Shown here piece after piece: positions 4,670-34,837 of a stretch of DNA of 64,000 bases. A program made the translations under genes and the position numbers. The notes under the pieces were generated by a model. It did no database searches. It had not been told where the DNA came from and saw nothing but the letters and a program-made list of their open reading frames with translations. The stretch is from an uncultured candidatus Porisulfidus sp. Its GTDB lineage: Bacteria; Pseudomonadota; Gammaproteobacteria; Poriferisulfidales; Poriferisulfidaceae. Where the stretch lies: NCBI GenBank assembly GCA_965242985.1, contig OZ251520.1, positions 860,492 through 924,491 on the forward strand, read 5' to 3'. Numbering within the stretch: the first letter of the stretch is position 1; each line of letters opens with the position of its first letter.

Positions 4670-4850
4670 CGGCTGGTATAATCCCGCCCGCTTTCAGGGC
4701 GAAAGCGAGCCACCCCTTTTCATGAAGACCCGGCGGCGGCAGGCAATGAAGAGCGCCGTTCCGCGCGCGCTCCTTGCGCGTGCAGTCCTGAATACGGGGG
4801 GGGGGGGCAGGAACCGCTCCGCGCGCCGGGCGCCCGGCGCGCAGCCGCTT
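4670..4850 (+). promoter_or_regulatory. Leader/promoter module copy B (TGgTATAAT at 4674-4682, G12 tract 4796-4807) upstream of autotransporter gene 1
   Basis: Conserved blocks tataatcc[ca]gcccgc ... gggcgaaagcga ... ctgaatac-G12-...tccgcgcgccgg shared with copies A and C. Confidence 0.6.
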
Positions 4851-5740
4851 CCGGCGGCCGTTCCGGCTCGGTCGACACCAGCGCGCGCGCTGCCGGCGGC
4901 GTTGCTAGCCCTGCCGTTGCTGTTCGCGGCGGGCCCGGCGGGAGCGCATACTAGCGACGACGGTCATGGACACTTCCGGGTGGAGTTGAACGGGTCCACC
5001 GCGCTTACCGTCACGGAGGGCCATACGGGAACCATCACCGTCCGCATCCGCTGCGTTTCGCACGAGAGGTCCAGCTGCAATTACGCTGGATATTCCGACA
5101 CGAATCAGAATAACCGCGATGAATTCACCATCTCCGCATCGACTCCCAGCAGCGGGGGCGGCGTCACGTTCGGCAGCACGAATAGGAAGTTGGGGTACAG
5201 CATAGTCGCTGGCCTCAACACGCTCGCCCTGAACACCACGGGCACGGTGACGCTCTCGGCCGGCGGAAACACGGTCGCAGACGGAACGCGGACGGTGACG
5301 GTGTCGGCGACGACCGACGAAAGTGGCGGCCAGAATTTCTTTACCCGGATACGCGACCTCGGCGCTATTGTCCAGAACGCCACGCTGACGATCCTGGACG
5401 ACGACCAGCCGCAGTTGTCGCTGGCGATCGCGGACGCGGACGACACGATCGCGGAGGGCGAATCGACGACGGTGACGGCGACGGTGGACACGGCACCGTC
5501 TTCGGCCTTGACGGTGACGGTGACGGCGGCGGCCGGGGTCACGGTGGCCAATGCGAACACCATCACGATTCCGGCGAACATGACTTCCGGCATGGGGTCG
5601 GTGACGATCACGGCGGACGACGACAATGTGGACGACGACGGCAAGATGGTGGTGATCACGGCGGCGGCGACTGGCCACGCGAACGGGCTCGCGACGCTGA
5701 CGGTCACCGACAACGACACCGCGGGGCTGGCGCTGACGGA

Positions 5741-33400: not shown

Positions 33401-34837
33401 GAGCAGACGCCGGACCGGGAGGTGGCGGTGTCGGGGCGGGCGCGGAACGCGCACGGCGTCGAGCAGCCGGCCGCGGTGACGCTGACCATCCGCGATGACG
33501 ACGGCGCGGAGGCGGTGACGGCGGTGCTGCTGCCGGAGGCGGCGCGGGCGATGGCGGACAGCCGGGCGGGCGCGGTGCGGCGGCGGCTGGAGAGCGCGGA
33601 CGCGGCGGAGGCGTCGGCGCCGCCGGCGCTGATGGCATTGCTGACGGAGCACGGCCCGTCGCTGCAGAAAGACGAACTGGACTGGAAGACGGCGCTGGCG
33701 GGGTCGTCGTTCGCGCTGCCGCTGAACGCGGCCGGCGAGAGCGGCGGCGGCGTGGCCGTGTGGGGAAGCGGCGACTACGCGAACTTGGACGGCGAGGCGC
33801 GCGGGGTGTCGTGGGACGGCGACGTCGTGAGCGCGCATCTCGGCTTGGACCGGAAACTGGCGAACGGTCTGCGCGTCGGCTTGGCGGCGTCGTGGTCGGA
33901 GGCGAAGTTCGACTACCGGCACGAGGGCCGCGAAGGCGAGTGGGAGCTGGAGATGACCAGCGCGCAGCCGTACCTGGGCTGGACGACGCCGGGCGGCTTG
34001 GAGTTGTGGGCCTCGGCGGGCGCGGGCAGCGGCGACCTGGAGATCGCCGCCGGCGGAACGGCGCGGGAGAAATCGGACGCGGACATGTGGCTGGCGGCGG
34101 CCGGGGCGCGGGGGCCGCTGCACGAGACGGAAAGCGGCTTGCAGGTGTCGCTGCGCGGCGAGGCGCTGTATTCGAGTTTCGAGGTGGACGGCAACGACGG
34201 GCGCATCCAGGCCTACACGGCGGACGCCTCAAGGCTGCGGCTGGCGCTGGAGGCGCGGCGGGACCGCGTGCTGGCGTCGGGGGCGCGGCTTTCGCCGCGG
34301 TTCGAGCTGGGGCTGCGGCACGACGGCGGCGACGGCGAGACCGGCGCGGGGGTGGAGCTGGGCGGCGGCGCGGAGTACGCGTCGGGCCGGCTGACGGCAT
34401 CGGGCGGGGCGCGGGTTCTGGCGGCGAATTCGGACTACGACGAGTGGGGCGCGGACTTGGCGCTGGCGTACGCGCCGGGCGCGGACGGGCGGGGCTTCTC
34501 GTTCCGGCTGTCGCCGTCGTGGGGTACTGCGCAGAGCGGCGCGCAAAAACTGTGGGAACAGGGCGCGCCGGGGCTGAGCGGCACTGCGGACGAGGCCGAC
34601 CTCGGCGGCCGCCTGGAGGCGGAGCTGGGCTACGGACTGAAGTCGCCGTGGAGCCGCGGGCTGCTGAGGCTGACGCTGGGCGGCGAAGCGGGCGAGGACG
34701 CGGGCGCGGCCTGCCGCCTGAAAGGCGCGGTGGCGCTGGACGCGACGGCCAGCCTGGGGCTGGAGCTGGAGGTGCGCGACCCGCCGTCGGGCGGCGCCGA
34801 GCGCAGCCTGATGGCGACCGGCGAACTGCGCTTCTAG
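30455..34837 (+). CDS. Giant Calx-beta-repeat autotransporter (intact)
   Basis: Signal peptide MTGARCARGLAAALLAAALLPASPAQA. About 12 Calx-beta-like ~100-aa repeats (…TLTI(R/A)DDD…). C-terminal ~420-aa autotransporter beta-domain (WGSGDY..., terminal F). C-terminal 500 aa ~85% identical to the gene-1 tail. Confidence 0.8.
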   Translation: MTGARCARGLAAALLAAALLPASPAQAQHLAYQVTLSKSVITEGESVTVGLSCTSYCGNNLITTGGAQTETTTKADIAISPTTYSNVTLSSNVRLTMNSNNSSNPWAGTVTISTTVDTADTGHRTVTVSGTQDRTDPNNAWAGVGTSAITSATLTILDAQAPQVTVSLSPATINESGGTITTVVQATVPTGSEPTTALAVTLSAAPVSPATSADFTTSWSGATTTLTIPANGTTSGLALITAVNNNLDGPETKQVTVRGAVATTVDYRSGSATLTINDDDMTDLTVDHSGGSTTVAEGSTATDDFEVSLASQPRSVVQVAVSVVNDSDGTRECEASVDDGANYIASGSTGTLTFVPTAGEISGAQTALWSTGQRVRVRSVDDAADDDDQTCTVRLNPASVPASGDTRYHNLADVDVSVTVTDNDVQPTLALTPPAIDESGMNNRATVTATLADPAASRVTLTVSAAPVSPAVAGDYSLSGSTLTIASGATTSTGTVTITAVDNAVDAANKTVTVSATSSGGNTVAPADATLTIRDDDGPGLDLSPTALSVAEPGEEGSFAVNLASQPTAAVTVTASRPAADGTECEVKSGAGAYGASTTLTFTASTPATLWSAPQTVMVRAIDDPSADADQPCDITLSVSSTDTNYNTLGDETVSVTVVDDDTAGLTLSKTEVSTSEDVADAAANADDFTVRLGTLPSAVVTIAISSSDTGEAAVSPASLRFGTAADNSDPANPVFLWSDPRTVTVTGVDDNDPDGSRDYTITLNPSSTGDSDYDGLDDVLVSGTNEDDDAVTVTLSVSAADGRLAEGESAAVTARLGRSVGAVTTIRVSAAAGTGASAAHFRLSENRTLTVAAGSTASTGTVTITAVDDDVDGPETRQVTVSGSASGGQRALDPDSLTLTIADDDAAPRASLILTPAAIDESAPDNEARVTAALSHPSSMATTVAVSAAAGATVGADNVLSIPAGATASADAVTLTAVDDEEQTPDREVAVSGRARNAHGVEQPAAVTLTIRDDDGAEAVTAVLLPEAARAMADSRAGAVRRRLESADAAEASAPPALMALLTEHGPSLQKDELDWKTALAGSSFALPLNAAGESGGGVAVWGSGDYANLDGEARGVSWDGDVVSAHLGLDRKLANGLRVGLAASWSEAKFDYRHEGREGEWELEMTSAQPYLGWTTPGGLELWASAGAGSGDLEIAAGGTAREKSDADMWLAAAGARGPLHETESGLQVSLRGEALYSSFEVDGNDGRIQAYTADASRLRLALEARRDRVLASGARLSPRFELGLRHDGGDGETGAGVELGGGAEYASGRLTASGGARVLAANSDYDEWGADLALAYAPGADGRGFSFRLSPSWGTAQSGAQKLWEQGAPGLSGTADEADLGGRLEAELGYGLKSPWSRGLLRLTLGGEAGEDAGAACRLKGAVALDATASLGLELEVRDPPSGGAERSLMATGELRF

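Follow-up and report, generated by a model that had tools for sequence, protein, structure and literature searches.

Two paralogous passenger-barrel genes in the window

The analysed stretch of DNA (hereafter, the window) comprises 64 kb of contig OZ251520.1 (positions 860,492–924,491, forward strand) from the assembly GCA_965242985.1 of an uncultured candidatus Porisulfidus sp. It contains two large paralogous genes, gene 1 and gene 2, encoding putative autotransporter-like surface proteins. The G+C content of the window is ~75%, resulting in abundant long spurious open reading frames (ORFs) on both strands; the real reading frames were picked out by third-position GC. Both genes are located on the plus strand, and both products carry an N-terminal Sec-type signal peptide, recognized by inspection, and end with a C-terminal aromatic residue (...GELRF). 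The original prediction described the region 4746–34837 as one system of two giant paralogous genes. Both genes are indeed present, but only gene 2 is intact, whereas gene 1 is broken by five 1-nt insertions. Nor does the region represent one system. The two genes are 18.6 kb apart, and the intervening DNA encodes a DUF1326 protein, msrA, a nitrilase-type hydrolase, tldD, pmbA, purM and three TonB-dependent receptors. Since these housekeeping and receptor genes are unrelated to genes 1 and 2, the latter constitute two separate loci. The flanks of the pair are likewise occupied by ordinary chromosomal genes, namely, lnt upstream and tRNA-Ala, rplY and ychF downstream.

Gene 2 is an intact ORF (30353/30455–34837, plus strand), with a product of 1460 amino acids (aa) when counted from the ATG at 30455. 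The signal peptide (30455–30535; MTGARCARGLAAALLAAALLPASPAQA, followed by QH) was assigned by inspection. The region 30536–33502, delineated by segmentation and hidden Markov models (HMMs), contains the tip domain, which extends to ~30931, and seven passenger modules, giving the full array N-B-A-B-A-A'-B-B. The translocation unit (33503–34837) consists of a helix (model residues 2–32), a low-confidence spacer of ~50 residues and 18 predicted β-strands starting from ~33752, and ends with the terminal F and the stop codon at 34835–34837.

Gene 1 (4746–11764) has the same general layout. It starts with an N-terminal extension and a signal peptide (4746–4946; ending in ...ALPAALLALPLLFAAGPAGA and followed by HT, by inspection). 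The N-terminal, or distal tip, domain of ~152 aa (4947–5402) contains a short-range cysteine pair and produces a weak match to the HMM of the B-type modules (E 0.002); it is unlike the tip domain of gene 2. Segmentation with HMMs derived from the window's own modules resolves the in-frame array B-A-B-B-A-A-A'-B-A-A'-B at 5403–9331. Next comes a frameshift zone (9332–10074), which spans B modules 6 and 7 and was mapped by three-frame translation and DNA alignment to an orthologue. The final B module is encoded in frame 2 (10076–10411). The translocation unit (10412–11764), 85% identical to the modelled unit of gene 2, includes a predicted α-helical linker of ~30 residues and a β-barrel from ~10679, and ends in ...GELRF with the stop codon at 11762–11764.

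Thus, gene 1 is not one ORF. The frame-0 ORF stops at 9432–9434 and the barrel ORF is in a different frame; by three-frame translation, the protein runs on through frames 0, 1, 2, 0, 1 and 2. The orthologous locus L082 (metagenome contig ctg28143, protein P0009; 94.6% DNA identity) is in frame across 9332–10074. Relative to this locus, gene 1 contains five 1-nt insertions, at ~9332, 9417, 9559, 9955 and 10074. Deletion of the five bases yields an uninterrupted ORF of 2337 aa with 14 modules (N-B-A-B-B-A-A-A'-B-A-A'-B-B-B-B). Because the insertions split the passenger from the barrel, gene 1 as written is unable to make a surface protein and would instead produce a periplasmic passenger fragment of 1560 aa without a barrel. 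In addition, the proximal start used by L082 (ATG TTG) reads ACA CCA in gene 1. Thus, translation must begin at 4722 or 4746 and read through a run of 12 Gs in the leader.

We consider an assembly error to be a somewhat likelier source of the insertions than genuine decay. The alternative, to which we give a lower but still appreciable probability, is that gene 1 is a decaying pseudogene that lost its proximal start and acquired five frameshifts, comparable to the inactive autotransporter alleles of Campylobacter lineages. Lineage-specific decay of autotransporter genes is documented (PMC7168839), and, besides the altered start codon, none of the five insertions is located at a long homopolymer. 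The dN/dS ratio (nonsynonymous to synonymous substitution rates) is 0.72 in the frameshift zone versus 0.57 upstream, but this contrast comes from small counts and is not clearly raised. By contrast, all five events are +1 insertions packed within 743 bp, and the remainder of the 7-kb gene shows no stop codon, deletion or further frameshift. Such clustering is unlike neutral decay and suits a locally badly polished stretch. The gene of L082 carries a single-base insertion of its own, at ~16775 near the 3' end of the gene, where the last barrel strands are replaced by out-of-frame sequence. Thus, single-base frameshifts do occur in metagenome assemblies of this kind. Programmed frameshifting was rejected as an explanation of the five shifts since there are no slippery motifs and the orthologues are in frame. 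A check of the reads is needed before gene 1 is annotated as intact.

Passenger modules and the translocator barrel

The passenger modules of both proteins are 105–145 aa long and end in acidic DDD/DND runs, in agreement with the acidic stretches noted originally. They fall into two types: B modules (~113 aa) have no cysteines, whereas A modules (~130 aa) carry a cysteine pair; A modules without cysteines are denoted A'. The original prediction assigned two conserved cysteines to each module of ~100 aa. Module arrays and GEC...DC pairs do exist, but the pair is present only in some of the A-type modules (four out of six in gene 1 and two out of three in gene 2) and in no B-type module. The window and 121 homologues together supply 397 unique A modules, of which 37 have both cysteines and 360 have neither; none has a single one, and there are no other cysteines. 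Such strict co-variation is a signature of a disulfide bond, which the A-module pair probably forms. The two module types are homologous to each other (hhalign 95%, E 3e-8).

Comparison with Pfam was conducted with the gathering thresholds of 27 bits for both the LapA domain (PF20579) and Calx-beta (PF03160), and 26 bits for the autotransporter β-domain (PF03797). The LapA domain is the nearest family, with B modules scoring 27.7, 24.0 and 23.0 bits, that is, one borderline pass, and the whole of gene 1 scoring 21.3 bits. No Pfam family was matched by the A modules, and the Pfam scan of the passengers found no pertactin, PATR or peptidase domains. RTX/HemolysinCabind domains are absent by Pfam from both proteins, and the C-terminus is a β-barrel instead of a type 1 secretion system (T1SS) signal.

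The relationship to Calx-beta becomes apparent at the level of the fold. An AlphaFold model of the B3-A2 pair (window positions 6465–7190), built from a 28-row alignment of B-A pairs, has a predicted local distance difference test score (pLDDT) of 91.7. Its best Foldseek matches in the PDB are the tandem Calx-beta domains CBD12 of NCX1/CALX (E 7e-8 to 1e-5, probability 1.0), which outrank integrin legs, RbmA and pilins. In profile comparisons, hhalign aligns A and B modules with probabilities of 85% and 82%, respectively, to a Pfam-verified Calx-beta domain from P0138, a carrier of the same barrel in which Pfam Calx-beta scores 75 bits. Thus, the designation of the repeats as Calx-beta-like in the original prediction is correct at the fold or superfamily level, and the B3-A2 model indicates a seven-stranded β-sandwich of the Calx-beta type, although the modules remain formally outside PF03160. 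Acidic residues are conserved in the module alignments at E18, D111, D113 and D200, and in the terminal DDD/DND; these positions are compatible with Ca2+ sites at the module junctions.

The last ~445 aa are common to all close paralogues and orthologues at 68–97% identity. Of the 121 database homologues, 67 have this region as well, including cases in which the precomputed Pfam annotation is blank. PF03797 is matched above the threshold in both genes (36.3 bits in gene 1 and 44.6 bits in gene 2), using profile positions 1 to ~220 of 255. NCBIfam TIGR01414 stays below its 16-bit cut-off for the C-terminus of gene 1 (14.6 bits) and does not match gene 2. A search of PDB sequences with the profile of the C-terminal module produced no match even at E≤1. 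In the AlphaFold model of this region (pLDDT 82, 17-row alignment), a helix formed by residues 2–32 (pLDDT 83–89) is followed by ~50 low-confidence residues and 18 consecutive strands, connected by 2–9 residues with the sole exception of a 28-residue connection containing a short helix. A strongly amphipathic 9-residue window is present in all 18 strands across the alignment. BrkA, EstA and EspP give the best Foldseek E-values, but the template modelling (TM) scores normalized by the length of these 12-stranded targets are only 0.43–0.50.

Counted from its first tryptophan, the barrel extends over ~360 residues up to the terminal F. Solved type Va barrels have ~250–275 residues. The barrel is thus predicted to be derived from an autotransporter barrel, but to be ~100 aa longer and enlarged by about six strands. 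Accordingly, of the classical C-terminal β-barrel envisaged originally, the passing PF03797 match and the ...GELRF terminus stand, whereas the length and the predicted number of strands depart from it. Alternatively, these could be ordinary type Va autotransporters with a 12-stranded barrel, in which AlphaFold misbuilt ~100 residues of loops or of a periplasmic or extracellular appendage. The family match and the identity of the closest structures fit such proteins. Yet the portion of the Pfam profile matched, up to position ~220, covers strands 1–10, and eight amphipathic predicted strands lie beyond it. The short connections between strands, with one exception, the low TM scores to 12-stranded targets and the failure of both the PDB sequence search and TIGR01414 also argue against a 12-stranded barrel, which we regard as unlikely.

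Proteins with this C-terminal module are numerous. An exhaustive HMMER search with its profile against 1.84 billion cluster representatives gave 10,297 matches at E≤1e-3, 8,475 at E≤1e-10 and 6,149 at E≤1e-30. In the best 150 matches, the module is always C-terminal, in proteins of 464–7149 aa; 146 of these matches cover the module almost completely, whereas four are truncated. A Pfam scan of ten short members identified passenger domains that include LapA, Big_9/cadherin, fn3, PKD, He_PIG and genuine Calx-beta. Nine of the ten have only immunoglobulin (Ig)-like passenger domains or no Pfam passenger domain, and the tenth matched no family, barrel included. PF03797 is above the threshold, at 33–43 bits, in eight of them.

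According to reviews, type Va autotransporters combine a 12-stranded barrel with a β-helical or enzymatic passenger, whereas arrays of Ig-like domains are typical of the inverse type Ve (PMC6555100, PMC9289746). A Calx-beta passenger joined to an autotransporter barrel is absent from both of these reviews of type V passengers, in line with the initial remark that the combination is not commonly described. In the listed literature pairing ‘autotransporter’ with ‘Calx-beta’, one paper names the latter only as a domain of LapA, and the abstract of another is silent on the combination. Given thousands of members and their absence from the reviews, the window genes belong to a large, undescribed variant. 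A further-reaching proposal, which we advance only tentatively, is that the C-terminal module defines a distinct, unnamed type V subclass, in which an approximately 18-stranded barrel would export strings of Ig-like or Calx-beta domains, some of them disulfide-bonded. The subclass would occur in thousands of bacteria, most of them environmental, and would as a rule be placed under phase variation by homopolymer tracts. Models of autotransport are built on proteins of pathogens, with 12-stranded barrels and β-helical passengers, and a narrow pore and an unfolded passenger are central to them. If the proposal is true, a wider barrel with independently folding, partly disulfide-bearing modules would directly test these models, and the family would bridge classical and inverse autotransporters. 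Thousands of unannotated giant surface proteins from metagenomes would also gain a name, and the universal G/C tracts would add high-GC, apparently environmental organisms to the bacteria in which contingency loci govern phase variation.

Leader homopolymer tracts and divergence of the paralogues

An alignment of the regions upstream of genes 1 and 2 and of two relatives reveals a conserved leader of ~200 nt, which consists of a TATAAT box, a small hairpin, ~100 nt of intervening sequence, (G/T)AATAC followed by poly-G, a GC hairpin and the signal-peptide codons. The leader of gene 1 (unit 2; 4677–4845, plus strand) has TATAAT at 4677–4682, in-frame upstream ATGs at 4722 and 4746, G12 at 4796–4807 and the GC hairpin TCCGCGCGCCGGGCGCCCGGCGCGC at 4818–4845. 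The leader of gene 2 (30234–30431, plus strand) has TATAAT at 30234–30239, an upstream ATG at 30307, which is out of frame at the present tract length, G11 at 30381–30391 and the GC hairpin at 30404–30431. The leader alignment and the search for G runs also identified a truncated duplicate leader (unit 1; 4493–4650, plus strand), with TATAAT at 4493–4498, G12 at 4601–4612 and a degenerate GC hairpin at 4624–4646. These three tracts are the only G runs of at least 10 nt in the 64 kb, all of them in leaders, versus 0.69 expected from shuffles. Neither the tracts nor the frameshifts of gene 1 were part of the original prediction.

Similar tracts are found in the other family genes examined. Five relatives have G10, G11, G12, G12 (plus a G14 duplicate) and G13, whereas three distant members from other organisms have poly-C of 22, 14 and 15 nt at the equivalent place. 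Overall, a G/C run of 10–22 nt is present at the 5' end in all ten family genes for which this end is available; L087 (the P0040 locus) was left out of the count since the 5' end of the gene lies beyond the called ORF. Conversely, all 12 of the G/C runs of at least 9 nt in the ~170 kb examined are in leaders of the family. Eight of the ten loci were examined for upstream frames, and in each of them a frame opened by an ATG runs into the tract. This upstream frame is fused to the main ORF through the tract in gene 1, L082 and L083, and ends at a TAA just past the tract in gene 2, L081, L084 and L085. In L089, an upstream ATG preceded by a Shine-Dalgarno sequence, together with the poly-C, would give a proper n-region of the signal peptide at C13 or C16, whereas the actual tract is C15. 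The duplicate leader of L082 (9546–9775; G14) retains the first codons of the signal peptide of another paralogue (GARPARGLAA), and its sequence reads as the footprint of past recombination or duplication of 5' ends among paralogues.

Homopolymer tracts are known from comparable genes. The autotransporter genes capC and capD of Campylobacter carry poly-G tracts (PMC7168839), and such tracts are described for contingency loci of Bordetella and Neisseria (PMC1891110). Based on these precedents, slipped-strand phase variation is the most likely role of the tracts, and expression of both window genes is probably phase-variable through tract slippage. Alternatively, the G/C run might be a part of a structured leader RNA, such as a stabilizing or translation-controlling hairpin, acting by base-pairing rather than by its length. 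Consistent with this possibility, a downstream CC...TTCC is the predicted pairing partner of the final Gs of the run, the second GC hairpin is conserved in nine copies with one compensatory change, and the leader shows no constraint at the protein level. Furthermore, the sequence that comes after the poly-C in L086 and L088, GCGAGGGG, could base-pair with this tract and occlude the Shine-Dalgarno sequence. On the other hand, the mRNA strand carries G or C depending on the lineage, the tract changes its position relative to the start codon and varies in length from 10 to 22 nt, and Rfam searches of the leaders yielded no family at the gathering threshold or at E≤10. Runs of this length are also intrinsically hypermutable regardless of any structure. 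We therefore hold a purely structural role to be rather improbable and favour slippage. Terminator scans of both leaders found none. A location of the poly-G in a spacer of 15–17 nt between –35 and –10 elements (TTGAAT...TAAAAG) is no more than speculative, since both hexamers are weak and gene 1 does not conserve them.

The other potential source of variation is recombination between repeats. The 3' ends of the two genes (10078–11766 and 33151–34839) are 86.6% identical over 1706 aligned columns, confirming the ~85% over ~1.5 kb estimated before. By contrast, the intragenic repeats, reported as ~90% identical, are 80–85.5% identical over 320–440 bp: 85.5% for 5705–6021 versus 7178–7506, 82% for 6792–7211 versus 7179–7613, and 80% for 5683–6017 versus 6771–7100. 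Exact intragenic identity extends over at most 46 bp, between A1 and A3, and over 32 bp between the adjacent A2 and A3. In the C-terminal module, gene 1 is 95% identical to P0007 and gene 2 is 92% identical to P0001 and P0002, whereas the two window genes are 86% identical to each other. Since orthologues are closer than the paralogues within the window, there is no sign of recent homogenization within the genome, and recent gene conversion between the paralogues, which the original prediction had suggested, is not supported by the sequence comparison. Nor is the suggested variation in repeat number observed between close orthologues: gene 1 matches L082/P0009, and gene 2 matches P0001, in both the order and the number of modules.

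These data bear on the possibility of a cassette-type antigenic variation, whereby near-identical repeats would drive frequent changes of repeat number and gene conversion between paralogues. In its favour, the exact shared matches, of 46, 32 and 88 bp, are longer than the minimum that recombination typically requires. P0003 shares with gene 2 just the C-terminal 57%, at 87% identity, and the N-terminal module order of P0007 differs from that of gene 1. A leader remnant of another paralogue is found upstream of both gene 1 and L082, and synonymous divergence (dS) between these orthologues climbs threefold from 5' to 3' (0.054 to 0.178). At least five paralogues are encoded on one 1.88-Mb contig of a related genome, and the family is clearly mosaic over longer times. 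But the moderate identity of the repeats, the unchanged module order and number and the greater similarity of each C-terminus to its orthologue, together with the location of the genes 18.6 kb apart in two full-length expression loci rather than silent cassettes, suggest recombination on the evolutionary time scale rather than a programmed high-frequency system. We thus consider a cassette mechanism very unlikely. The poly-G tracts are a stronger argument for variable expression than the repeats.

Genomic surroundings, proposed mechanism and known systems

TldD of the window is at most 61% identical to the closest GTDB species representatives (Gammaproteobacteria, Burkholderiales), and the barrel peptide has no relative among GTDB representatives. 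The closest relatives of both proteins are encoded on ENA/NCBI metagenome contigs of 0.5–1.9 Mb. Directly upstream of gene 2, the three TonB-dependent receptor genes are consecutive (21974–30162; listed as 885, 919 and 1000 aa). Because the second and third ORFs, as listed, overlap by ~240 bp, translation of the third probably begins further downstream. In L081, a locus of a related genome, an IS605 OrfB/TnpB (Cas12f-like) gene (4494–5834) adjoins a TonB receptor gene, and a paralogous autotransporter gene is located ~4 kb downstream of the IS605 gene. The tRNA-Ala gene (34967–35042) starts 130 bp downstream of gene 2, and in another related locus (L084, 1160–1233) a tRNA is found ~270 bp upstream of a different gene of the barrel family; tRNA genes may thus mark sites of insertion or recombination of barrel-family genes. 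ARAGORN also predicts a tRNA-Gly(tcc) in the leader hairpin of gene 1 (4820–4890), which is almost certainly a false positive, as the Infernal tRNA model gives no match at E≤10; a 96-nt ‘tRNA-Gly(ccc)’ predicted at 63657–63752 (minus strand) likewise has no Rfam match.

Downstream of the gene pair is a low-GC island (40100–41990; GC 0.40–0.55 versus 0.75 in the window) with two plus-strand genes matching both components of the candidate anti-phage system PDC-M41 from PADLOC. The gene at 40228–41247 matches M41A (E 8e-72) and that at 41270–41989 matches M41B (E 4e-116) as well as Pfam DUF5131. The island, which was probably acquired horizontally, is bounded by a gene for a protein with a helix-turn-helix domain and an M78 peptidase (RmrA/ImmA-like; 38112–39491, minus strand) and by the RNase P RNA (42029–42366). 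The dcw cell-division cluster (42528–47357; mraZ, rsmH to a Mur ligase) begins right after the latter. In its 975-aa ORF (44430–47357), the Mur ligase domains occupy only the C-terminal half, suggesting that the listed start is probably over-extended, as is typical of high-GC DNA.

Taken together, the data make it reasonably probable, in our view, that genes 1 and 2 encode surface proteins of an uncharacterized type V-like branch, composed of a signal peptide, a tip of ~150 aa, 7 or 14 Calx-beta-type modules, a helix of ~30 residues and an enlarged barrel, with phase-variable expression. In such a protein, the barrel would be inserted by the β-barrel assembly machinery (BAM), and the passenger would be threaded outward from the C- to the N-terminus, leaving the helix in the pore. 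Export might be powered, and the rod stiffened, by successive folding of the β-sandwich modules on the cell exterior and by Ca2+ bound to their acidic junctions, in the manner suggested for adhesins of the intimin and RTX types. Binding would fall to the variable, paralogue-specific tip, and the protein would stay attached as an adhesin or a surface fibril. In the leader, slipped-strand changes in the length of the 10–14-nt poly-G would either fuse the upstream ATG frame to the signal peptide or terminate this frame.

Several observations weigh against this scenario. The Pfam Calx-beta threshold is not reached: the whole of gene 2 scores 18.7 bits and the highest-scoring individual module, of type B, 15.7 bits, versus the cut-off of 27. 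Ca2+ binding is proposed solely from the acidic motifs, and the count of 18 strands comes from one AlphaFold model based on 17 sequences. As to the switch, the tracts of the orthologous pair gene 1/L082 are equal in length, both being G12, and the fraction of genes in frame, three out of eight, is the chance expectation. Between the ATG at 4746 and the signal peptide, gene 1 and L082 differ by ~8 non-synonymous and three synonymous codon changes. The leader thus appears to lack protein-level constraint in this part, and a non-coding role fits equally well. The differences in tract length among metagenome assemblies may in part be homopolymer sequencing errors, and a sigma-70 scan of both leaders found no canonical promoter.

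Among known systems, the type Va autotransporters (EstA, AIDA-I, Hbp, NalP, EspP, BrkA) are the closest in architecture. They too combine a signal peptide, a passenger and a C-terminal barrel with an aromatic last residue in one polypeptide, PF03797 is passed, and their barrels are the best structural matches. The α-helical linker that precedes their barrel has a predicted counterpart here. The differences concern both parts of the protein. Type Va barrels have 12 strands, whereas those described here have ~360 aa, 18 predicted strands and a spacer of ~50 residues between the helix and the barrel. Type Va passengers are typically β-helices or enzymes rather than strings of β-sandwiches, which are not among the three type Va passenger classes of PMC9289746. 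With the inverse type Ve proteins, intimin and invasin, the products of genes 1 and 2 would share the attached surface rod of tandem Ig-like domains, and sequential folding of such a rod is thought to drive type Ve export (PMC6555100). However, type Ve proteins possess a 12-stranded N-terminal barrel and Big/Ig repeats, in contrast to the C-terminal barrel and Calx-beta/LapA-like modules found here.

The passengers themselves resemble other groups of proteins. LapA and related RTX/T1SS adhesins have acidic β-sandwich repeats of ~100 aa, in line with the borderline Pfam LapA match of one B module, and many of the database proteins homologous to the passenger have no barrel but contain LapA and Calx-beta domains. 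Stalks stiffened by Ca2+ are the accepted model for these adhesins. They differ in their anchoring, which relies on a retention module at the N-terminus that sits in a TolC-like pore, whereas the proteins of the window have a C-terminal outer-membrane barrel as an anchor and no RTX/T1SS signal. Structurally, the B-A tandem is closest to the CBD1/CBD2 domains of NCX1/CALX (E 7e-8, ~230–270 aligned columns), with which it shares the V-x-V-x-x-x-D-D...acidic motif and the terminal DDD. By contrast, sequence identity to these domains is 12–15%, PF03160 scores are below the threshold, and the modules described here belong to an extracellular bacterial setting and include a disulfide-type cysteine pair in the A modules.

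Finally, the leaders are comparable to those of autotransporter genes switched by tracts, namely, Campylobacter capC/capD and the Bordetella and Neisseria loci, in which a G/C run is located in the promoter, leader or 5' coding region. Both sets of genes include many paralogues with a conserved barrel and divergent passengers, and both intact and inactivated alleles (PMC7168839). Here, on the other hand, the host has 75% G+C and is apparently environmental, the genes are known from sequence alone, and the tract is embedded in a hairpin leader of ~200 nt with an upstream ORF.

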